Source: Proteromonas lacertae
Taxonomy: Eukaryota
Direction of reading: 5' to 3'
Length of the DNA: 64,000 nt
Assembly (NCBI GenBank): GCA_002245135.1
Contig: NGBS01000304.1
Span: 124,001 to 188,000 of the forward strand
Shown: positions 635-59,860 of the stretch, in pieces
Layout of the letters: every line of letters begins with the position of its first letter
How positions within the stretch are numbered: the stretch's first letter is position 1
Program-made: the position numbers and the translations under genes
Notes under the pieces: model-generated
What the model was told of the DNA's origin: nothing
Seen by the model: only the letters and a program-made list of their open reading frames with translations
Database searches by the model: none

Positions 635-2400
635 CTAATTATTCTCATATATCTTTATTCCATGTTCTATAGCTGCAGCTATTCTATCTAATAAATCACT
701 CAATATCATTCTATGTTCTGGTGAAATTAAATTCTCATCTCTCATCATATTTACTTCTTTTTACACATAATTAAAGAATTATTTTTATCATCAAAAGATA
801 AAAAAGATATTTCTTTCTTCAATAGAGATTCATATAATGCTTTACCTCTAACTAAATTTGGACTAATTGCATTATTAGCACTCCAATAATATTTCAATGA
901 TTCATTTATACTTTCAATATAACTAATCAAATTACTGAGTATTTGGTTTGAATTATTTACTCTTTTATTGAAATTATTATTATTACTATTATTATTTGGT
1001 TTTTGTGGATAAAGATTGATTAATATCTGTAATGGATTTACCACTGATTCAAATGTGTTTGATAGATTTGGTTTGTAGTTATTTATTTGTTCAATAAATG
1101 ATTCAATTGTATATCTAATATAATAAATCAAATAATACATACATTTGTTTTGAAGTATTATTACTCTCATTAATATCATTTACTATATTCCTATTTGGTT
1201 GTATGATACCTATATTTATTGGTATTGTTTGTAGCTTTTCTTTAGGTATTAAATCATTCTCACAGTTTTCTAATCTTCGCTTCATTAATACATCTTTATG
1301 AGGTTCTTTTTCCATTCTTTCTAACGTATTATAACTTATTTTATTAATCTCTGAGATTGCTTTATAATACTTTTGTTTTTGATTTAATAATTCTCCTTGT
1401 TCTATATATATATATTAATAATTATATACTTATATTGGAAGGTAATTCTCTATTTTCCCATTCATTCATTGGATCTGTCAACGGTTCTTTAATAATTTCA
1501 TCATCTAATGTTGATACTAAATTCACATCTGATACTACATAATCATCTATTGTTAATAAATAATATCTAATAATAATAAATTATACTAATTTCACGTTTG
1601 GTATATTTCTTTGGTGGTTCTAATACTTCACTTGTTTCAACTCGATCTCTTTTTCTATAGAAATACATTCTTGCAATTTCTTCCCAAAATTCTTTTTCTG
1701 ATTTTAATATTCCTACTTCTTTATCATGTAAATTCTTTATTTTTGGAAACATCTGGAAGATTCGTAAGATGATATCTGATGTTATTTCTATTTTTAAATT
1801 TCCCTAATTTACAGATATTATTTTTTATTTATATACACTTTCATCTTCAGTAATAAATTCATTAAAGAAAGTTATTGTTCTTTTATCTGGATTTGTAAGT
1901 TCAGTTATTTCTTTTTCTTTTAATACATCTTGATGATTATACCACCATTCAACATACGATATACTCTTTGATAATACTTCTTCATTATAAAAACTCTCTA
2001 ATTCAATATCTTGCTTTAATATACCATCTGATTTGAATTTATCTGGAGGTTCTATTCTCTATTAATGTATTTAAATATACCAAATCCAGATTTTATTATT
2101 TTTATTATATTTACTATTCGTGTAATTAATTTTTCATTTGGAAAAGTGAATATGCACATCTGAGAAGAGGTTAGAACTAATCTCACCTTGTTACTTTTAT
2201 TTTGAGCTTCTATATATTATAAATTCATTATATATGCTTTCAATATCTGATTTCGGTATTATAGATACACCTACTGTGTTGTCATAAGGAACGAACTTCA
2301 AACCTGTAATATAAAAGTAAAGTTTCCCTTCATGTGCTTTATTTTCCTTATTTGCATATATTGTTTCTGTTTCAAGGATTATTTCATTTTCTATTGACAT
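635..2400 (-). CDS. GTF2H1: TFIIH core subunit p62/Tfb1 (PH-like domain, two BSD domains), 7 introns
   Basis: Spliced product has an N-terminal PH-like segment, BSD1 (ILKQDIELESFYNEEVLSKSISYVEWW), BSD2 (IILRIFQMFPKIKNLHDKEVGILKSEKEFW), LKYYWSA and a C-terminal helix LSDLLDRIAAAIEHG. Needs a GC-AG intron (2210-2237) and an AT-AA intron (761-810). Confidence 0.8.
761..810 (-). other. Putative U12-type intron with AT-AA termini (50 nt)
   Basis: ATATCTTTTTTATCTTTTGATGATAAAAATAATTCTTTAATTATGTGTAA. Removal joins LLKKE to KEVNMMRDE and restores the p62 C-terminal exon. Confidence 0.7.
2210..2237 (-). other. GC-AG intron (28 nt)
   Basis: GCATATATAATGAATTTATAATATATAG. Removal restores the frame (DIEKAQNKSNKVRL). 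Confidence 0.75.
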
Positions 2401-7682: not shown

Positions 7683-8369
7683 ATGGATGATCTTGATGCA
7701 GAAACTTTAGATGCAGCTGGATTTGAGGCTATGGGTGAAGGATCATTTGATGATGCGATTAATTATTTCTCTCAAGCTATAGAAAAGAATCCAACTAATG
7801 GAGTGTATTATACAGATAGATGTGCTGGTTATCTAGGGAAACTCAATGTAGAGAAGGCAATAGAAGATGGCAAAAAGGGAGTTGAACTTTGTCCTGATAA
7901 TGCAAGATGTAACATGCAGTTAGGAGTGATTTATGATTTTCAGAAAGAATGGTCAAAAGGATTGGAGTGTTATGAAAAAGGATTAAAGCTTGAGCCAAAC
8001 AACGAAACAATATTAGCGTTAGTGAGGCATGATAAGACGAGACTAAGCAATAGAGGTGAAAATATATTAACAGGTGTAGAATTATTAGAATTTTTAGATT
8101 CAAAGGGCGAAGAAGTAGCATATTTAACAAGATCACCAGAATTGTATTATTTTATAGATGATATAAGTGAAGATTATCAGAATGCTATAAATTACGTTGG
8201 TGATCCAATAATGGATTTATTTATAGAGTATATGAAGAGTGACATAATTCCAGAAAAAGATAAACAAAAGTGGGAAGAAGCAATGAAAGAAATTGAAAGA
8301 AAAGTTGAAGAAGAAAAGAAAAAAGAAGAAGCAGAAGCTGAAGAAGATGATGATGAAGAAAATAATTAA
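7683..8369 (+). CDS. Sti1/HOP-like TPR protein (3 TPRs plus DP-like segment), paralog A, intronless
   Basis: TPR1-like pattern (AINYFSQAIEKNPTN..YYTDRC..AIEDGKKGVELCPD..YEKGLKLEPNN) and a DP-like segment PELYYFIDDI...GDPIMDLF. Confidence 0.75.
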   Translation: MDDLDAETLDAAGFEAMGEGSFDDAINYFSQAIEKNPTNGVYYTDRCAGYLGKLNVEKAIEDGKKGVELCPDNARCNMQLGVIYDFQKEWSKGLECYEKGLKLEPNNETILALVRHDKTRLSNRGENILTGVELLEFLDSKGEEVAYLTRSPELYYFIDDISEDYQNAINYVGDPIMDLFIEYMKSDIIPEKDKQKWEEAMKEIERKVEEEKKKEEAEAEEDDDEENN

Positions 8370-9010
8370 ACTATTTAAATAATAAACTAAATTATACAAA
8401 GTGGTATACTATATTCGTATATTATTACTTACATTAATTTTGTTAATTTTATGATTGATCAACAACATAAAGGATTATAGAAATGAAGAATAATAAACAA
8501 TGAAACGGATATTAATTTAATAATGAATTATTGACTGAATGTATGGTAGATGATGAATGGATTAGCCTATAAAAGAGCGCAAAGCAGTATAATTAATAAT
8601 ATTAGTGAATAGTCTATTTTTAGCCTGAAAGATGGTAATGAATTTACTAGCTTTAATGAAACCAAGATTTATCATTAATATAAAATTATTACTGTCATTA
8701 TATAGGTTGATCTATGTTTATATAATCATTTAAAACGAAAACAGAAATGATATTGTGTGGTGTGATATAATACATCCATATGTTATAAGCAGACTATTAT
8801 ATGAGTAATGTAATAATTGAAGTTTTTGTAGGATAAAAATGTTCTTTGAAATTACAATATGGTATATATTCTAGAAATACAATGATTCATACTCTAGAGT
8901 CTACAGACTTACTTTATATTGTATATTTCTTCACCAATTCTGAAGAATTGAGTGAAGTATCTTTACTGTAAAATTAAAAAATTATAAAAACAAGCCAAAC
9001 ATTCTTAATA

Positions 9011-9679
9011 ATGGACGATCTTGATGCTGAAATTATAGATCAACTTGGATATCAAGCTTTGAAAGCAGGAGCATTTAGTCAAGCTATTGCCTTATATACT
9101 AAAGCAATTGAAAAAGATCCTTCAAATGGTATTTATTACACTGACAGATGTGGTGCTTACCTTGGGAATGGTGAAACAGAGAAAGCAATGGAAGATGCTA
9201 AGAAAGGGGTTGAATTATCTCCAAATGATTCTCGATGTAACATGCAATTAGGTATTATATATGATGCTATGAAAGATTATGCAAAGGGGCTAGTATATCA
9301 TGAAAAAGCTTTACAACTAAATCCAAATGATGAAATGATATGGGGTTTAGTAAGACATGATAAAACAAGATTAATGAAAAGAGGTGAAGATGAATTAACG
9401 GGAGTAGAATTTCTAGAATTTCTTGATTCAAAAGGAGAAGAAGGCAAATTATTAACTAGATCACCAGCATTATATCACTTTATAGACGATATAAAGGAGA
9501 ATGTTCAACATGCAATTAACTATTTAGGTAATCCTATATTAGATTTATTCTCAGAGCATATGCTAGGAGGAATTATTCCTCCTGAAGTTGGAGCTAGAAG
9601 AGTTCCATGTGATGTAGCTAGAAGAGAATATGAAAAAACAAGAAGAGAACATCAAAAACAAGAAGATGGAAATAATTGA
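9011..9679 (+). CDS. Sti1/HOP-like TPR protein, paralog B, intronless
   Basis: Colinear with 7683-8369 (shared MDDLDAE, YYTDRC, RCNMQLG, LVRHDKTRL, EFLDSKGEE). Confidence 0.75.
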   Translation: MDDLDAEIIDQLGYQALKAGAFSQAIALYTKAIEKDPSNGIYYTDRCGAYLGNGETEKAMEDAKKGVELSPNDSRCNMQLGIIYDAMKDYAKGLVYHEKALQLNPNDEMIWGLVRHDKTRLMKRGEDELTGVEFLEFLDSKGEEGKLLTRSPALYHFIDDIKENVQHAINYLGNPILDLFSEHMLGGIIPPEVGARRVPCDVARREYEKTRREHQKQEDGNN

Positions 9680-11496: not shown

Positions 11497-12748
11497 TTAT
11501 GAAGTTGGATGAATTCTATTACCCTTCTTCCCATGCAATGACGGTAGTTTTGCAATTTCCCAAAAGAATTCAGGTTCAAATAAATCATCATCATCTTCAT
11601 TATCAGGATTACCATTACTCTTAGCCGCTGATAAATGCATAGATTTCATCTTTTGTATTTTCATACTCTTTGCTCTTTGCATACCACCTGGTTGAGTTGA
11701 TATCCTAATTATCCTATTTCTATTGTTATCCTTCCTCAAATTCTTCGGACAAACAGCTCCCTGCTTAAAGAATATTGGCTTAAACGCTGTAGGAGGTTTG
11801 TAACCGTAGCTCATTCGAAATAGAGCAGTTAAGCTTTCAATTGTCATAAATGGTGAAGGCTCAAAGTTATATAAATAAGGATTTGTATTCCTATTAAATA
11901 TACGTTTAATTCTTGATTTACAACCTTCAGGAGGCAATCGTTGGTTATGTTTCATTTGATATTCTTTTATACTATTTATATGTTTATATCGATATGTTAT
12001 TAAATGCACTCTTTCTTTACCTAATGCATAGGACACTACTTTCCTTCTTACATTCAAAATTGTACCAATGATTCGAGGATTTTGTGAAAAATATGAATAT
12101 ACTGTTGGAAGAGGAATAGAACCATCTATAGACTCTATTACTGATTCAATCCATGCATTTAAAGTGTCTAAGTGTTTTTCTCTTGAATCGACTAATTTAT
12201 AAAACTCCATTAACTCTATTGGAGAGATAGATGTGTCTACGTGAATTCCTGCTACGGATAGTAGACTTGGTATTAAATGGCTACCACTAGTTATTGTGAA
12301 TAGTAACACAAACTGTAGAAATATATCGAATGATATTTCATTATCTAAGTAAATTATAAAATAAGCGTTTCTAATACTATAAATTATAAAATATCTCTGC
12401 AAAATTGATGTTTGCTTTAGATGATAGCCTTTACATAAATTATCAAAACTTAAATATGTGTCAGCTTTATTATATCTAAACCAAAGCCTTAAATATTCGG
12501 TAGATATTAGATTTATTTCAAATACATTCACTAAATATAAAATTATTCTTAATTATACAACAAAAATAACTCACAAATTCTTTTGATATACTATTGAGTG
12601 GTAAATTAAGATGTTTATAGATATCGACATATTTAAAACGTATCGAGTTACTTCTTGAGTAAGCAGTCATCTATTTGATAGAAAAACAATTTATTCATAC
12701 CAATGCTTCTGGTAGTTGTTTATTTGTCACCTGATATATTTGTGCCAT
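11497..12748 (-). CDS. Hypothetical protein, possibly with degenerate EF-hand-like helices
   Basis: 344-aa ORF extended by two GT-AG introns to ATG 12748. No firm family motif recognised. Confidence 0.55.
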
Positions 12749-13704: not shown

Positions 13705-16182
13705 TAATATATAGATACTTATCAGCACCAGTAATAAGTGCTCTTTCTTTACATCTTTTTTGTTGCAATAACACCATTTCTAAACGAATACGTCTTTCTG
13801 GATCAAATTTCTTTCTTTGCAACGATTCTCTATTAAAGAAATAATTAATATACATATATATATACGCTGCTTTTCTATCATTTTCTTCTTTATCCTTCAT
13901 CAATGCTTTAATATCTTTCATATATCTATCTTGTAATATTCTCTTCAATTCTAATTTATCTTTTCTCTTCTTTTCTTCTTCTTCTAATTTCAATCTTTCT
14001 TCTTCTTCTTTCTTTATTTGGGCTAATTTTTCTTCCTCTTTCTTTTGGGCTTCTCTTAATGCTTTTTCTTTTTCTTCTCTCTTCTTTCTCATTGCTTCAT
14101 CTTTTTCTTTTCGTTTTCTTAATATTTCTGCTTCTTCATATTGTCGTTTTTTATCTAATAAAGCTCTGTAATTATCTTCTTTCTCTTTTAATGCTTGTCT
14201 TCTTCTTCTCTCTTTCTCTAACAATTCTTTCTTCTTTTTATATTCAGATTTCTTTCTTACACAATAAAATTAAAGAAAAAAATGTCAATATAACAATCAA
14301 AAAGATATTTTCTTCTTCTAAAAATTTAATTCTTTCAATTTCTCTCTGATTTCTTTTCAGTACATATACTCTTCTACACACAAACATTTTATAAGTGGCT
14401 TGAATCTTACTAGCTGCACGATGAAATACTCTTTCTTTCCATTGAGATACTCTATCCCAGTGAAATGATAAGAAAGTCCATTTCTTCTCATTATTTTGTT
14501 TTTTAGTTGTAATTAATGGAAATCCTCTGTATATTGGACATGTTTTTGGCCTTTTCATTGTTCTTACTTGTTCAAATTCTTCTTTTTCTTTATCTATTTC
14601 TTCTTTTATTTCTTCATATTCAAATTCTAATTTTGCAGCTTCTGAAGCAGCTTGTAAACGTTCTGAAAGATCATTGGTTGAATTGAAACGTAATTTATCT
14701 GTTCTTTTCATATCTTTCGTTAATTTCTAATACAATAATAATAATAAAGTAAAATACATACTTTTTCTTTATAACTAAGTGATATTCTATGTTTATATTC
14801 TCTTTTAATACATTCCAATAGTTGATTCTGTGCTTCAATATCGTCATCTTTATATAAATGTTTAATCCTCCAATCTTCTCTTTCTACAGTCGATAAAGTG
14901 CCTAAAGTGACATGAATTCTTCTCTCAACTCTTTCAAAATCATTTTTCTCAAAATAACTCAAAGTTCCTATTGATATTAAATGTGTAACATATCTTGGAG
15001 TTAATATATCACCAACTAAACCTCTGAAGGCTTGAGGATAGGAGGAATTAGTGTCGACTATTTCAAAGATAGTAAAACGGTTGAAGCCTTTTGGTTGAAC
15101 AGGTACTATTAATAGGAAATGAGAAAATAAATGAAGAAAATAAGAAGAAAATGAAAAAAATTAACAATAAACATAAAAAAGAATTAGAAAAAGATAAAAA
15201 CAAAATATAATAGTGAGTAGAAAATAATGAAAAAAGTAGAAGAAAATATAAAAACATTATAATATATATACAGATATGACCAGTTATTAATAGAGAATCT
15301 AAACCACCTTGTAATATAAACTGTTTTAAAATATAAGGTTTCTTCACACAATGTTCAGCCAATGAAGATAATGCAATTGTACATGATAACTGTAATGCAT
15401 AATCACTTTCTGGATGATTCCAAACCTCTTCCGAGCTTAACGGAATTATTTCATTTGAGTTGATAATTCCAGCATATATACTTAATACTTCTACAACACC
15501 ATTTAAACATAGTACATCAATTGATTTTTCATCGAAACATAAATTTATCAATATATACACATATCCAGCTTTCATCCTTTCTTCTGTACTTTCATAAAAT
15601 AATTTCACAATTAATTGAAGTAAAGGACTATTGGATATTTCATTTCTTAATCGTTTTTGTGTTGATAGTTGTATTAAGTCACATATGGATGGATAGACTG
15701 AATCTACATTTTTTAACTCACTGACCATTAATTCATAATATCTGTGTGGAATTTCAAATTTTGAATAATCTACATTTGGAGGAGGTGGTGCATTGTATAA
15801 TGATCGTTTTAATGCGTTTTGTCTTACTGTTCTATTGATAAATGTTCTAGAAGCTGGTAATCTTTCTGATTCTTTTCTTTTTAAGATTAATCTTGCAGAT
15901 CTATTTTTTAATACTTTTGCTTCACGAATTTCATCTTCTCTATCTCTTTTAGTTGGAATTTGACATTGCTAAAACAATAAAAGATAATAATTAAACTGGA
16001 TCAACAATGCAACAATAACTGTTTTCAAATTTATAAGTATAAAATCGACTCTTTGGACCAACAGATTCTAAATCAATGAATAATACTATTTTCATACCCA
16101 TGCACATCTGATCAATCAATATTCTCTCCCATCGATATATTTGTCTCATAAATAAAGATCTACATGAACGAACTACTGACAT
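12926..16182 (-). CDS. Multi-exon protein: ARM-like repeats, IQ motif, charged coiled coil, OCRE-like and WW-like domains
   Basis: Exons splice in frame from ATG 16182. IQ motif AASKIQATYKMFVCRR; OCRE-like FYDPSSGYYFDYTNNNYYDPKT; WW-like YSKYYDEKGKSYYQNIKTGTATYAIP lies in the +1 frame after 13080. Confidence 0.65.
14257..14308 (-). other. Putative U12-type intron with AT-AA termini (52 nt)
   Basis: ATATCTTTTTGATTGTTATATTGACATTTTTTTCTTTAATTTTATTGTGTAA. Removal gives FLEEE-RKKSEYKKKKELL in frame. Confidence 0.65.
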
Positions 16183-27289: not shown

Positions 27290-29074
27290 ATGTCATTATT
27301 TACATGTGGTATAGATTTAGGAACTACTTACTCATGTATTTCCTCTAGTAGAGACGGTTTAGTTGAGGTTATTCCTCAAGATTCAGGAAAGAGGACCATT
27401 CCATCGTATGTGTCATACACTGATGAAAGAATAATAGTTGGCGAAGCAGCGAAGAATAACATTTATAAGAACGTAGAAAATACTATATATGATGCTAAAA
27501 GAATGATTGGTCACAAATTTACAGAAGCAGAAATACAAGAGGATATAAAACATTGGGGATTTAAAGTTCTTCCTGACAAGAATAATGATTGCTTAATAGA
27601 GGTTAAATACAAGAAAGTATTAAATCATCTTCATCCGCAGAATATACAAAGTCAAGTGTTAGCTTGCTTAGTAGAATCTGCTAGAAGAAGACTTGGTGAA
27701 GGAGAAGATAAGATTTGCCATGTTGTTATCACTGTTCCTGCGTATTTCAACGATAATCAAAGAAGAGCAACAATTGAAGCAGGTGAATTAGCTGGTTTGA
27801 ATGTTTTACAGATAATAAATGAGCCAACAGCAGCTGCTATTGCATATGGATATAAATACTATAAAGGAAAAGAAGATCGAACAATCTTAGTATATGATTT
27901 TGGAGGTGGAACATTTGATGTTTCAATAATCGAAATCAAAAATCAAAAGATAACTGTAAAAGCAACCGGTGGTGATACTCATTTAGGAGGTGAAGATATT
28001 AATAGAAATATAATGAATTACTATAAATTACAATTATTAAATGAAGCAGATTACGATATAGATAATAACAAGAAAAAGAAATATAGATTATTAAATGCAA
28101 TTGAAGAAGCAAAAATAAAACTAAATATTCTTACTGAAGTAGATATTGAATGTGATGTATTAGATGATAATGCAGTAAATAACAGTCTTTCAAGATCATT
28201 TTTTAATAAATTAAATGAACAAATTTTTCAAAAGACTATTACTATTGTTAAAAATGTTTTAGCTGAAAGTGAATTAAATGTAAATGATATTGATGATATT
28301 GTATTAGTTGGAGGAAGTAGTAGAATTCCTAGAGTTCAAGAATTATTATCAGAATTTTTCAATGGCAAAGAATTGAATAAAGATATTAATCCAGATGAAG
28401 CAGTTTCATTTGGTGCAGCAATTTTAGCTGAAGATATATTACAAGGAGTAAAAGAAAGAAGGAGGAAAGATGGAATAATTGAATTGATTGATACTCAAAC
28501 TGATCAAGTATTAAATCCAAATGATTCAAAAATGAAATCATATAAATGCTCAAATAGTAAAATATTATTATTATCAAAATCAATATTTAAACCAGATAGT
28601 GTAGTTGACAAAATATCATCTCCTGAATTATTACTGCCTTTATGTAAAAGCAATAATATTGTGTCTTTTAGTGAAGGAGGAAGAAAAATTCCAGTTGAAA
28701 GGAGTAAAAATAGAAAATTAATAGTTAATGATGTTTTATCGATTAGTATTGGAAAAGAGGATGCTGGAGATGTAATGTCAGTTATATTGGAGAAACAAAC
28801 ACCAATACCAGCACAAAATACGAAACTGTATTGTACAACTGAAGATAATCAATCTGAAATTGAATTAGTATTTTATCAAGGAAATAAGAAGAAAGCATCA
28901 ATGAATAAGATGTTAGATCGATATGTTATTAAAAATATTCCTAAAAGGAAGGCAGGAATGGTAGAATTAGCTGTAAATATGGATATAAATGAGAACGGAA
29001 TATTGACTATTAATGTAATACCTGTAAATAGTGATGATTTTAAGTTAGTTAAATTAACAATTCAAATTAATTAG
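27290..29074 (+). CDS. Divergent Hsp70, paralog A (no lid, no EEVD), intronless
   Basis: GIDLGTTYS, VITVPAYFN, INEPTAAAIAYG, DFGGGTFDVS, LVGGSSRIP, NPDEAV. Ends just after the substrate-binding beta domain. Confidence 0.92.
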   Translation: MSLFTCGIDLGTTYSCISSSRDGLVEVIPQDSGKRTIPSYVSYTDERIIVGEAAKNNIYKNVENTIYDAKRMIGHKFTEAEIQEDIKHWGFKVLPDKNNDCLIEVKYKKVLNHLHPQNIQSQVLACLVESARRRLGEGEDKICHVVITVPAYFNDNQRRATIEAGELAGLNVLQIINEPTAAAIAYGYKYYKGKEDRTILVYDFGGGTFDVSIIEIKNQKITVKATGGDTHLGGEDINRNIMNYYKLQLLNEADYDIDNNKKKKYRLLNAIEEAKIKLNILTEVDIECDVLDDNAVNNSLSRSFFNKLNEQIFQKTITIVKNVLAESELNVNDIDDIVLVGGSSRIPRVQELLSEFFNGKELNKDINPDEAVSFGAAILAEDILQGVKERRRKDGIIELIDTQTDQVLNPNDSKMKSYKCSNSKILLLSKSIFKPDSVVDKISSPELLLPLCKSNNIVSFSEGGRKIPVERSKNRKLIVNDVLSISIGKEDAGDVMSVILEKQTPIPAQNTKLYCTTEDNQSEIELVFYQGNKKKASMNKMLDRYVIKNIPKRKAGMVELAVNMDINENGILTINVIPVNSDDFKLVKLTIQIN

Positions 29075-29136
29075 TGTAAAGCAACATTTTTTAGTGTAAA
29101 ATGGGGTATGAAAATTTACATACACCTAATTTTAAA

Positions 29137-30888
29137 ATGTCTCTATTTACATGTGGAATTGATCTAGGTACTACATATACATGTGTATCACATAAAAAAG
29201 GGGATAAAATTGAGTTTATCGATTTTGATAATGATAAAAGAAACTTCCCATCATATGTAGCTTTTAAAGATGAAGAAATAGTAGTAGGTGAAGTTGCTAA
29301 AAATCAAATATCTAGTAATCTAAAAAATACCATATATGATGCTAAAAGAATGATTGGTCATAAATTCAACGAAGAAGGGATTCAAGAAGATATAAAACAT
29401 TGGGGATTTGCTGTGGAAGAAGACAAAAATGATGGTGGCTGTTTAATTAGAGTAGAATATAAAGGCGAAGAATATAAAGCAAAACCTCAAGAAATATCAA
29501 GTCATGTATTATCAGCTGTATCAAAAAGGTTAATCAATCGTTATGCTATAGAAGAAGGTAAAACAATTCATGCTGTAATAACTGTTCCTGCTTATTTTAA
29601 TAATGAACAAAGAAAAGCAACAATTGAAGCAGGTGAATTAGCTGGTTTGAATGTATTACAGATAATAAATGAACCAACAGCAGCTGCTATTGCATATGGA
29701 TATAAATACTATAAAGGAAAAGAAGATCGAACAATCTTAGTATATGATTTTGGAGGTGGAACATTTGATGTTTCAATAATCGAAATCAAAAATCAAAAGA
29801 TAACTGTAAAAGCAACCGGTGGTGATACTCATTTAGGAGGTGAAGATATTAATCAAAACATTTTTAATTTCATTGTTAAAAGGATAAAAGATGCTAATGT
29901 AGATGTAGATATTACTTTAAATAGAAAGACAGAGTTAATGAAAGCAATAGAAGATACAAAAATTAAATTAAGTAAATATGATGAGAGTGATATATCATCC
30001 AGCATTTTGGAAGATTATGATATAGATCAGGAATTAAGTAGAGAAGATTTTAATCAAATAAATAAAGATATATTTGAAAAGACTATGAAAACAGTCGAAA
30101 AAGTATTAAATGAAAGTGGCTTAAGAAAAAATGATGTTGATGATGCTGTTCTAATTGGAGGAAGTAGTAGAATTCCTAAAATTCATGAATTGATGGAAGA
30201 TTTTTTCAATGGAAAAGTATTAAATCAAGATATAAATCCAGATGAAGCTGTAGCTTATGGTGCAGCAGTCTTAGCTGAAGATATTTTGAATGGAGTTCGA
30301 GAAGAAAAAGACAAAGATGGAAAAATCATATTAATAGACATGAAAACTAACAAAATATTAAATCCAAAAGATAGGATGCTTAAGTGTGTTGACCCTAAAG
30401 AAATAAACTCATGTAGTAGAAAAATGATAATACCAAATCAAAGTAGTGGAAGAAAGATTTTAGTTAGTGAAGGTCTTAAAGAACCAATAGAAGAAAGTAG
30501 TCAAAGAAAACTAATAATTGAAGAAATATTAACTCATAATATTGGTATTGATGTTATTAATAATGAATTTTCACCTATTCTAAAACATGGTAATAGAATT
30601 CCATATACCAACACTGAAAACTATACAACACCTTATGATAATATGAAAGTTGTGTCCATAAAATTCAACGAGGAAATTGATTCACAAGAAAAGAAATATG
30701 TATATATATTTAAGTATTTGTTGAAAATTAAACCACTTCCTGCTGGAGAAGTAAAATGTGATATAAAAATGACTCTGAATAAGAATGGTATACTTAATGT
30801 TGAAATAATACCGAAAAATTCTAATCATTTTGAAAAATGTGATTTAGAATTTGGAAGATGTGACGGAAACATTGTTATAAGAAAATAA
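29137..30888 (+). CDS. Divergent Hsp70, paralog B (no lid, no EEVD), intronless
   Basis: Same motifs as paralog A. Start placed at MSLFTCG (29137) by homology with A. Confidence 0.92.
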   Translation: MSLFTCGIDLGTTYTCVSHKKGDKIEFIDFDNDKRNFPSYVAFKDEEIVVGEVAKNQISSNLKNTIYDAKRMIGHKFNEEGIQEDIKHWGFAVEEDKNDGGCLIRVEYKGEEYKAKPQEISSHVLSAVSKRLINRYAIEEGKTIHAVITVPAYFNNEQRKATIEAGELAGLNVLQIINEPTAAAIAYGYKYYKGKEDRTILVYDFGGGTFDVSIIEIKNQKITVKATGGDTHLGGEDINQNIFNFIVKRIKDANVDVDITLNRKTELMKAIEDTKIKLSKYDESDISSSILEDYDIDQELSREDFNQINKDIFEKTMKTVEKVLNESGLRKNDVDDAVLIGGSSRIPKIHELMEDFFNGKVLNQDINPDEAVAYGAAVLAEDILNGVREEKDKDGKIILIDMKTNKILNPKDRMLKCVDPKEINSCSRKMIIPNQSSGRKILVSEGLKEPIEESSQRKLIIEEILTHNIGIDVINNEFSPILKHGNRIPYTNTENYTTPYDNMKVVSIKFNEEIDSQEKKYVYIFKYLLKIKPLPAGEVKCDIKMTLNKNGILNVEIIPKNSNHFEKCDLEFGRCDGNIVIRK

Positions 30889-55274: not shown

Positions 55275-55760
55275 ATGGTTAGTATATTGAGTCATTTAAA
55301 ATCTTATTCTACCACAAAGATATTAACTGTGAAAAATACTAAGATTGTATGGTTATTATCCATTTTTGATGTAGGGATGGCTACATATCTTTTTTCAGCT
55401 TGCTGTCTTTGCATATATCATTGTATGGCAAGTAATCATATCGAAAGGATATCAGAGAAGAGAAGAATTTCATGGTATATGTCTAAATTACTGAAATAGG
55501 TTCCTCTGATATAAAGGTAAAGGGAAACTCACTTAATCGACAAGGTGAGCTTTATGATACTTATGAAATTGTGAATCCACCATTCGTATAACAAATTGAA
55601 ATATTACTGTTAAATAGGAAATAAACGGAGCATTTATAACAACCAACTTTATAAAAACCGGCCCACAGAGAAAAGGTGTATGTTTTGGTAATGAGACGGT
55701 ATTAGCACCTCCAGCAGAAGTAAGTGAAGCATGTATAGATCATAAATGTGAAAAAGGAAA

Positions 55761-55798
<38 letters not shown>

Positions 55799-56756
55799 AA
55801 ATAAATAAATAGAATAACAACACATGGAATAACTACAGGAATTTGTAATACAACAGAATGGGGAAATGAAATGTGTGAAATAAGAGCTTGGTGTCCTTTA
55901 GAACCACCAGAACCAAGTGGGGAAAATATATTGGATAATGTATAATATATTATAATATTATTAAAATAGACAGCTAATTTCACCTTATTAATCAGAGTAG
56001 ATGGTGTATTTCCATCCTATCCAGAACATCCAGTAAGTAATGGTGAAAGTTCAGATTTAAGATGGAATTATAATTTATTTTATCTCAGTGATTTAGTTGC
56101 TGCAGCTTGTCAACCAAATGTGAAATTAAGTCCATCTGTTCCTATTAGTTCTCAACCAAAAAGATTACCTTTGTCTTATCATAGAGATATATTGAATAAA
56201 GGAATTGTACTGTTGTTAGATGTGAATTATGATTGTAATTTAGATAGAAGATGGTCAAAGTATTATATTTAATTATTTATTTATTTAATAGATGTTTACC
56301 AACATTTGATGTGAATAGAATTGATGTTGAAGATGGTATTTCTAGTGGATTTATATCTTTTTTTTAATCATTTTATTTTTTCTTAATTTTATTTCTTTCT
56401 GTACAATTATCGATATACTAGTTATTATTATCAGAATGATACGAGAGTGAGGGATTTATTCAAACTGTTTGGAGTTCATGTATTAGTGAATATTGCTGGA
56501 GTTGGTAGACAGTATAGGTTTATTTATCCATTCATATAGTTTTGATTTAGTACAGACTATGATTACTATCAGCACAGGTGTTGGATTACTTTCTATTGCA
56601 GTAATCTTGACTGATTTTATATTGGAATATTTCCATAGTAAGAAAGATGTGTTTGAGAAACATAAATATGATTATTTAGATTATGCAGGAAATGAGTTAG
56701 AGAATAAGAAGAATAATCGTAAAAATTTGATAGAAGATGATGAAGGATATATATAA
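55275..56756 (+). CDS. P2X ATP-gated ion channel, about 8 introns including one AT-AC
   Basis: YSTTK, TM1, KGYQ, IKVKG, CEIRAWCP, SSGF|NYRY, RDLFKLFG and TM2 (FDLVQTMITISTGVGLLSIAVILTDFIL). Confidence 0.9.
56353..56404 (+). other. U12-type AT-AC intron (52 nt)
   Basis: ATATCTTT...TTTCTTAAT...CTGTAC. Removal restores the conserved P2X motif SSGFNYRY. Confidence 0.9.
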
Positions 56757-57468: not shown

Positions 57469-59860
57469 ATGAAAACAATATTTTTGAGTATATTAGTGAA
57501 TATTTTGTACTGCAATAGTTTTGCTTATTGTTTTGAGCGTTAGTGGAAGTAGTTCAAACCATTTGAGTTTTGTTTTATAAGATTTATTTATTTTAGGAAG
57601 ATTAGCAACAACAGAAGCAGTTCCAACAGGAACTGTAATTAAGTTTACTTCAACTGATAGTAAAAGTGCAAAAACTACATATTTAGTAAGTGATGATGTA
57701 GTTGTAGCTCAAGTAGGAAGTGTAGATAAATACATTGTTTATACAGTATCTAAGAAAGATTCAACAACAAATCCAACAAAAGGAAGTGTTTATACTTTAG
57801 CATTAGAAAAAACATTAAGTGGAGAATGTAGTGGTTCTAGTAATTCCAAAACATTAAAGAAATGTAGTGATATGACTACTCCAACACATTGTCCAACTGG
57901 AAATTCAGATACTGGTATATAACATATGATTATAATAATGAATAGTAAAAACTATAACAATTATTTATACTCCACCAACATCGGCAGTAGCAAGAGATAG
58001 TATATTATCTACAACTGCAGGCATAGTAGAAGTAACAGGTGAATATGTTGATAAAACTGATAATGTATTTGTTGTTGATTCAGATAGTGCAGTAGAATTA
58101 GTTGATGATGGTATTGATAAAATATTATTAATATTTAAATAGTAAAAACAACAACAAATGCTGAATTAGTAAAATATCAAAAAGGTACTTTTTGTGAAAT
58201 AACACCACCAACAAAGCCAGTTCCAGAAGGAGCAATAATTCAGTTCAAAGTAGGAAGTGCAGGAAATGAATATACCTATTATATAAGTGACAATTCCTTA
58301 TTGATTAAGAAAGATGAAAATAATTATATTGTTTATACAGCTAGTAAAAGTGAATTAACAGATAAAACTGGAAGTAGTTATAGTTTGAAGTTAGAAAAAG
58401 AAAAGAGTGGAACATGTACAGCTGAAAAGACATTAACAGCATGTAGTTTAATAACTAAATCTCCTGATTTCTGTCCAGCTACAGGTAGTGAATGTATAAT
58501 ATATAAATAATATATAATATAAATAGTAACAAAAATCGAAGTAAAATATACAGCTGGTGCTGATGCTGCAGCTGCAGGTACAGTAGAAATAACATTTACA
58601 CCTGCTGTTTCTTTAATTGCAGATGTAAAAACAGTTACTTTAAAATCATCATCTGATGGATATACTACTTTAAAAGAGATGATAAGTAAATATGTTGATG
58701 GTAGTTACTGTAAACCAGCAACACCAACTACAACAGTAGTTCCAGAAGGAGCAATAATTCAGTTCAAAGTAGGAAGTGCAGGAAATGAATATACCTATTA
58801 TATAAGTGACAATTCCTTATTGATTAAGAAAGATGAAAATAATTATATTGTTTATACAGCTAGTAAAAGTGAATTAACAGATAAAACTGGAAGTAGTTAT
58901 AGTTTGAAGTTAGAAAAAGAAAAGAGTGGAACATGTACAGCTGAAAAGACATTAACAGCATGTAGTTTAATAACTAAATCTCCTGATTTCTGTCCAGCTA
59001 CAGGTAGTGAATGTATAATATATAAATAATATATAATATAAATAGTAACAAAAATCGAAGTAAAATATACAGCTGGTGCTGATGCTGCAGCTGCAGGTAC
59101 AGTAGAAATAACATTTACACCTGCTGTTTCTTTAATTGCAGATGTAAAAACAGTTACTTTAAAATCATCATCTGATGGATATACTACTTTAAAAGAGATG
59201 ATAAGTAAATATGTTGATGGTAGTTACTGTAAACCAGCAACACCAACTACAACTATAACTCCATCGGTTATTCCATCTGATAAAATTGTAAAAGAGAATG
59301 TAACTCTGACATCATCAACAGCTACTCATCTATTTGCTTCTGATAGAATATATGTACTAGCTGGAAATCTTCAATTGGTTGTTGAATGTGAGAGAGAAAA
59401 TAGTATAATTCTTTGAATATATTATATAATATATATAGAAGATAATAATTATACTGTTTATAAAGTTAAAAAGAATGCAGATGATAAAGTTGTAATAGAT
59501 GCAGGAAAGTCAGGTGCAATTGATGGAAGTAAATTAGCAAATGAAGAATTTGCTTGTCAATTGCCAGTTAAGTTTGTTTCATTAACTTATATTACAAGCC
59601 ATTGTGAAAGTCAAGAAGCTCAGAATGTCACTAATGATTTGAATGAAATGATTGATGATTTCTTGAAAGAAACTCAATATTCATTTACTAAAGATACAGA
59701 AACAAATGATGTGTATTTCTATAATGATAAGACAGTTGGTGATAAATATGGTGTAGTTGTTAGTGAATCTGAATCTGGAATTCATAAGCTGGAAGATGGA
59801 TCAATCAGATCAGTTCCAATTGTTATTGCTTTATTAGCAGTTATTTTACCGTTAATTTAG
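57469..59860 (+). CDS. Secreted/surface protein with signal peptide, repeated Cys-containing Thr/Val-rich domains and hydrophobic C-terminus (possible GPI signal), about 7 introns
   Basis: Spliced MKTIFLILLIVLSVSG...HLRRLA. Ends SVPIVIALLAVILPLI-stop. Confidence 0.7.
58219..59253 (+). repeat. 519-nt intragenic tandem duplication including an intron
   Basis: 58219-58734 matches 58738-59253 by eye, including the intron GTATAATATATAAATAATATATAATATAAATAG. Confidence 0.92.

Follow-up and report, generated by a model that had tools for sequence, protein, structure and literature searches.

The TFIIH p62 gene on the minus strand of the 64-kb window (the whole stretch of DNA analysed) was split by a 50-nt segment, 810->761, that is very probably an AT-AA minor-type intron, with a donor, a branch motif and an AA end that appear to be conserved in relatives. 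The segment is likely to be removed by a minor (U12-type) spliceosome for which A is an acceptable final base. This was considered the best reading because the p62 frame was broken, because near the branch it could be repaired only by AA cuts, because conservation ended at the donor and because two further introns shared the signals. The initial annotation had described a 50-nt segment with a branch-like motif 10-11 nt from its end and a TGTGTAA finish. This description was confirmed and assigned to the minus strand: the segment started with ATATCTTTTT, carried TTCTTTAAT at 778-770 and ended in TGTGTAA, with 10 nt remaining between the putative branch A at 771 and the 3' end. The features are listed in Table 1.

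Table 1. Coordinates of the predicted introns, their signals and the p62 gene model in the window.
Feature	Position	Strand	Remarks
TFIIH p62 (GTF2H1/Tfb1) gene model	635..2400	-	8 exons, 509 aa with AT-AA intron removed
Last exon of p62	635..760	-	41 codons + stop
AT-AA minor-type intron (candidate)	761..810	-	50 nt, phase 0; final intron of the p62 gene
3' end TGTGTAA of p62 intron	761..767	-	cut after 761 preferred; candidates 758 and 755 also AA
Putative branch site TTCTTTAAT of p62 intron	770..778	-	probable branch A at 771
5' splice site ATATCTTTTT of p62 intron	801..810	-	+6 = T, textbook C
Penultimate exon of p62	811..1114	-	3' part kept in relatives up to donor
Predicted GC-AG major intron	2210..2237	-	28 nt, first p62 intron; frame logic only
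Second AT-AA minor-type intron (candidate)	14257..14308	-	52 nt, phase 1; frame + relatives
AT-AC minor-type intron (candidate)	56353..56404	+	52 nt, phase 0, P2X receptor-like gene, TTCTTAAT, end CTGTAC

The identity of the gene was established from its BSD exon (1803-1587 or 1803-1570), which matched residues 184-238 of human GTF2H1 with E values of 4.4e-5 to 6.7e-5; the Pfam BSD score of this exon (E 0.0054) was below the cut-off. The initial annotation had spoken of a p62-like last exon. The assignment of the gene to p62 stood (E 4.4e-5), but the last exon itself (635-760) had no p62 match and no database match or ortholog of its own. When the PDB was queried with the two final exons and with profile A1, no p62 match came up, and the exons for the N-terminal PH domain and the C-terminal helical bundle, which we presume from resemblance, had no match in Pfam or PDB. 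A single-exon AlphaFold model made from a single sequence was helical, with a pLDDT of 51. When full-length p62 was sought with the BSD exon, it was found in none of 67 candidates, and a comparison of the p62 exon with metagenome contigs gave 591 pattern matches, none of them confirmed. Upstream of the AT-AA intron, the gene model contained six introns of 28-40 nt, one of them GC-AG. If this predicted 28-nt intron is counted, three intron end types occur in the p62 gene.

With the segment 810-761 retained, p62 comprised 487 aa, compared with 509 aa after splicing, and the unspliced product would be without the 41-residue tail. It had been claimed that only AA-ending cuts from this donor restore the frame. 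This was true within 11 nt of 761, where the frame-restoring cuts were 761, 758 and 755 (all AA) and the AG ends at 757 and 754 left the frame broken, but farther downstream AT cuts at 749, 737 and 731 and an AG cut at 734 restored it as well. These more distant cuts, 22-40 nt from the branch, cost 4-10 residues. Our home-made gene finder preferred 758 over 761 as the acceptor. The claim that sliding the junction yields neither GT-AG nor AT-AC held: slides of -1 to +2, which give the same mRNA, produced TA-AA, AA-TA or AA-GT, none of them canonical.

A HMMER search of the whole library with the penultimate p62 exon as query returned three matches, of which two were true relatives; P0069 (E 6.5e-4) was repetitive and was dropped. 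Together with cluster members, nine p62-relative proteins were collected, 46-63% identical over the alignment, and all were gene calls running into the intron. In all nine the exon (R-G-K-x-L-Y...E) was kept up to the same donor, after which the proteins diverged or stopped, their stop codons lying 5, 13, 15 or 21 codons past the donor. The segment 810-761 is therefore non-coding. The donor was conserved down to 46% protein identity, its read-through, E-I-S-F, being invariant (9/9).

The DNA of the relatives was deduced from these read-through proteins on the assumption that alleles share the 3' end, and two of their reading frames together gave TCTYTRAT as the p62 branch. One protein, P0072 (one contig, separate assembly), read the whole intron in the frame of the window; the intron was 56 nt long there, with a one-base shift relative to its cluster mates, and the protein ended S-L-I-L-I-C-K-R-K-stop where the window gave S-L-I-M-C-K-K-K-stop. 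Since Cys-Lys is encoded by TGY AAR, P0072 has AA and not AC in that register. A C at 761 would have made the intron AT-AC, and the relative had Lys (AAR) rather than Thr (ACN) at the intron end; this AA end among relatives was read from one protein on one contig. An in-frame AG was possible 3 nt downstream in P0072 (48/144 codon paths), and the p62 intron could be AT-AG there; the window had no such AG. The read-through of P0067 and P0075 ended F-L-W-F-stop and that of five cluster mates F-L-stop; the P0067 and P0075 endings imply a different sequence at the branch.

Two other frame breaks in the window appeared to be caused by introns of the same build. The host gene of 14308-14257 (model about 16101-13080) encoded ARM-like repeats, an IQ-like motif and a coiled coil, and a cut after TGTGTAA united two long open frames. 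Ten relatives of this gene (78-90%) were near-identical up to the donor and then diverged in all three frames, and the donor read-through was conserved in 9/10. Two of them ended C-K-E-E-I-stop (6 contigs), compared with C-K-K-E-I-stop in the window, three ended V-stop (14 contigs) and four stopped in the branch; P0077 had an early stop and an A at donor +6. When three alleles were fitted jointly, assuming that they share the same end, one of 49 offset pairs was consistent with all of them, giving the end TGTGTAA and the branch TCTTTGAT 13 nt upstream, a spacing equal to that in the window. The third intron lay in a P2X receptor-like gene at about 55470-56756 (+) with weak PDB matches to P2X1, 2, 4 and 7. 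A cut after TGTAC placed the first residue of the next exon on N292 of P2X7 (E 0.01-0.4, 14 P2X chains), and the AT-AC cut is therefore favoured over its neighbours. The short exon before the junction gave no match in the PDB search.

U12 introns have an RTATCCTT donor and a TCCTTRAY branch about 10-20 nt before the 3' end. The p62 donor and branch deviated from this textbook consensus. The donor ATATCTTT, with T at +6, was present in all three minor introns of the window, which shared ATATCTTTTT, TYYTTAAT and TGTA(A/C). Their branch motifs were TCTTTAAT, TCTTTAAT and TTCTTAAT, with 10, 13 and 18 nt after the presumed branch A. The putative branches are thus of the TCCTTRAY type and within 10-20 nt of the 3' end, the extended 5' splice sites can be read as a +6 T variant of RTATCCTT like that of Physarum, and the ends assigned from frame logic and relatives (AT-AA twice, AT-AC once) would fit those of U12-type introns. 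Only three places in the window fitted a generic pattern (ATATCYTT, TYYTTRAY, A[A/C]), and at every one of them the frame of a gene was broken. The pattern gave nine overlapping matches against a mean of 1.67 in shuffled sequence, and two of 100 shuffles reached nine. With TGTA[A/C], which was added post hoc, three matches remained, where shuffled sequence gave 0.04 on average. Minor introns with a GT start were not found in the window.

Several candidates were rejected. Loose minor-intron calls at 12624, 15277, 17205 and 21606 proved to be GT-AG introns a few bases off in three cases and an in-frame read-through in one. A motif scan of metagenome contigs gave at least 118 loci that look like chance matches in non-eukaryotic DNA; among the matches listed, the GTAT...TAG intron-like motif was absent in 114/118, and the best candidate (L039) straddled a stop and an intergenic gap. 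Separately, just upstream of the start of the second of two TPR-like genes, GTATCTTT and a branch-like TTCTTAAT (8957, about 9002) were followed by no evident acceptor.

The window was eukaryotic and gene-dense, with short introns. Outside the repeat block 31200-52400, a gene finder that had six p62 introns as its seed gave 56 predicted major introns, with a median length of 32 nt; 51/56 started with GTAT, 55/56 ended in TAG and none contained the branch motif (0/56). The p62 segment 810-761 had neither the GTAT start nor the TAG end of the organism's major introns. Three further major introns were added by hand, and the minor introns accounted for 3 of about 62 (4.8%, 95% interval 1-13%). Their GC content was 13-15%, that of the window about 25%.

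Other features were also recorded. The repeat block, at about 31200-52500 (-), consisted of about 21 kb of tandem E/K/N-rich coiled-coil coding repeats with extreme strand skew and near-exact units, and open frames of 1,747 and 1,508 aa lay at its ends. In intron-rich surroundings at 27290-30888 (+) lay a tandem pair of divergent Hsp70-like genes without introns, which were recognised by eye from their translations, and the two tandem TPR-like paralogs at 7683-9679 (+) were intronless too. Within a gene at 57469-59860 (+), a stretch of about 519 nt was duplicated almost exactly, and both copies carried an identical 33-nt intron (58494 and 59013). The gene at 64000-61153 (-) encoded a membrane protein in which He_PIG (putative Ig) repeats occurred along with cysteine-rich spacers. 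We take this gene, like the 30-base introns, to recall Blastocystis. A coiled-coil protein at 17051-16396 (-) bore a resemblance to DRC12 of the dynein regulatory complex that is no more than a lead (atlas score 0.82), and this DRC12-like gene hints at flagella. Blastocystis is without flagella according to the available part of PMC10690189. The closest Rpf2 proteins were 92, 89 and 68% identical, and in a tree made by a quick method, which included no named stramenopile or amoebozoan, the window grouped with three proteins outside the animal and fungal rows.

It is unlikely that the AT-AA introns are real but occur in a lineage that has no minor spliceosome, the major spliceosome removing former minor introns. 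Donor and branch were off consensus, genes for U11, U12, U4atac and U6atac had no Rfam match in the 64-kb window, and AT-AC introns of the major spliceosome exist, as the accessible text of PMC8280824 states. However, the extended donor and the branch motif, so distinct from the major introns (0/56), were kept in relatives as pairing with U11 and U12 would maintain them, and the major introns of the window were strictly GTAT...TAG. Quite improbable, too, is a minor donor and branch combined with an acceptor elsewhere, either AT at 749 or AG at 734, which would give an AT-AT or AT-AG intron. Both cuts restore the frame, AT-AG ends made up 32/90 of the sampled Blastocystis ST1 minor introns, and an in-frame AG at +3 is possible in P0072; yet the distance to the branch A is 22 nt for 749 and 37 nt for 734, with a loss of 4 or 9 residues, the junction of the P2X intron, which is fixed by homology, lay directly after TGTAC, and the second intron had no in-frame AG end among the cuts examined.

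There is very little likelihood that a GT-AG major intron of 89 nt (845-757) or 92 nt (845-754) is used instead, even though its ends are canonical and it restores the frame to give 496/495 aa. The 89-nt intron, which the initial annotation had set out as the alternative, would remove 12 codons that were conserved in 9/9 relatives; the deleted stretch, G-K-A-L-Y...E, includes G, K, L, Y, L, L and E, invariant in 10/10 aligned sequences. Its GTAAAG/AAG ends were foreign to the major introns (GTAA start 0/56, AAG end 1/56, a count that leans that way because the model was seeded on GTAT-type introns), and it leaves the conserved ATATCTTT donor and the branch unexplained. We find it just as hard to believe that there is no intron, with either one A missing from the run 762-758 through an assembly error or the protein ending at the in-frame stop. 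One extra A would open the frame through 810-761, and the read-through is free of stops for 19 codons; against this, in 9/9 relatives the read-through diverged and met its stop at one of four lengths, P0072, which comes from a separate assembly, had the same stop in the same register, alleles differed by one base in length and the same build recurred at two other frame breaks. An origin of the three segments from a mobile, Introner-like intron family with odd ends, instead of from old minor introns, as their similar length (50-52 nt) and identical end motifs might suggest, can practically be dismissed, since their interiors shared only AT-richness by eye, their positions were common to relatives down to 46% protein identity and their conserved parts were the U12 signals alone. 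The reading of 810-761 as an AT-AA minor-type intron was thus supported by frame logic, by the relatives and by the two further introns of the same build.

Taken by itself, the p62 intron adds one more example to a rare type that is already known. The initial annotation had stressed the rarity of AT-AA ends; the type is indeed rare, but the surprise was partly overstated, since in animals and plants AT-AA is the most frequent of the non-canonical ends, which together make up about 4% of conserved minor introns there (PMC10639083, in the text available). An older count gave three AT-AA minor introns in human (PMC1557818, available portion), and the last base of minor introns is free to vary, forming an AT-AN class (PMC8280824, as far as its accessible text goes). 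The introns of the window resembled the A-type U12 introns of animals and plants in the AT start, the extended ATATCYTT donor, a branch 10-20 nt from the end and the last A, whereas they differed in that two of three were AT-AA, that position +6 of the donor was T and that a TGTA motif stood ahead of the final base. The expectation that human GTF2H1 has a minor intron did not hold: the gene was absent from the human and mouse minor-intron gene tables (0 in 8 files), in which GTF2H3 is present (PMC6717393), so that, as far as these tables go, no deep positional conservation backs the class assignment. Positions shared with minor introns of distant eukaryotes are common for U12-type introns, but they are no requirement.

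Among 90 sampled of 339 ATATC-starting introns of Blastocystis ST1, the ends were AC in 53, AG in 32, AT in 3 and AA in 2; the donor was ATATCC in 89/90, minor introns were about 1% (346/35,412), and no TGTA end appears in the available part of that source (PMC5608401). As far as this partial text allows a comparison, Blastocystis ST1 and the window have in common a compact genome, major introns of about 30 nt, longer AT-starting minor introns with a variable last base and no GT-type minor introns found, but minor introns were about 5% in the window, with its GC content of 25%, against about 1% in Blastocystis. In Physarum polycephalum, AT-AA made up 27% of 1,014 non-canonical minor introns and a compensatory change in U12 snRNA was shown, according to the accessible text of bioRxiv 10.1101/2020.10.12.336362. 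From the same portion of the source, Physarum and the window share ATATCTTT (+6T) donors, many non-canonical ends and a raised density of minor introns, and a TTTGA-type branch like that of Physarum occurred in relatives of the second intron; in contrast, AT-AA is a small share of all minor introns in Physarum, where GT-AG minor introns dominate. Ciliates and Archamoebae have been reported to be without a minor spliceosome.

If the established biology of U12 introns applies, U11 and U6atac would read the ATATCTTT donor and U12 would pair with the TCTTTRAT branch. The 3' end would be chosen by branch distance (10, 13 or 18 nt) with the help of the TGTA motif, and the last base could be C or A; judging from the three introns and the relatives, TGTA before the last base may be an added acceptor signal. 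Strong AT pressure, which fits the low GC content of these introns, may have shifted position +6 of the donor, the branch and the final base towards A/T, and the snRNAs would carry matching changes, as for Physarum U12. The drift to T at +6 and in the branch has its parallel in Physarum.

Whether these features extend to the whole lineage was considered separately. We regard as tentative, and as somewhat less than an even bet, a rewired, intron-rich minor system in which AT-AA would be a standard end at least as frequent as AT-AC, the signals would be ATATCTTTTT, TCTTTRAT and TGTA(A/C), minor introns would make up several percent and the snRNAs would have co-evolved. The window had been chosen for its AT-AA intron, and the fair test was provided by the other two minor introns. 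The chance of at least one AA among them was 0.04 at the Blastocystis share, and that of finding two more minor introns was 0.12 at the Blastocystis density and 0.015 at a density of 0.3%. These probabilities favour a lineage-wide use of AT-AA; they are suggestive and not proof. What may be new is a lineage in which two of three minor introns, at about 5% of introns, are AA-ended behind TGTA, a share that three introns cannot establish genome-wide. The literature covered, outside whose scope lay most subscription papers, bioRxiv supplements and the intron tables of Proteromonas and tortoise Blastocystis, yielded no account of a lineage whose minor introns are mostly AT-AA.

AT-AA has been a tolerated exception wherever it was counted. 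If the three introns are unrepresentative, the p62 intron is a well-supported yet ordinary rare intron. If AT-AA is routine and conserved, it would provide a natural test of two questions: how the minor spliceosome chooses its 3' site (branch distance, TGTA, pairing of the first and last bases), and whether splice signals and snRNAs are driven jointly by AT-biased mutation. In these genomes, p62 and all such genes would come out truncated from standard gene finders.
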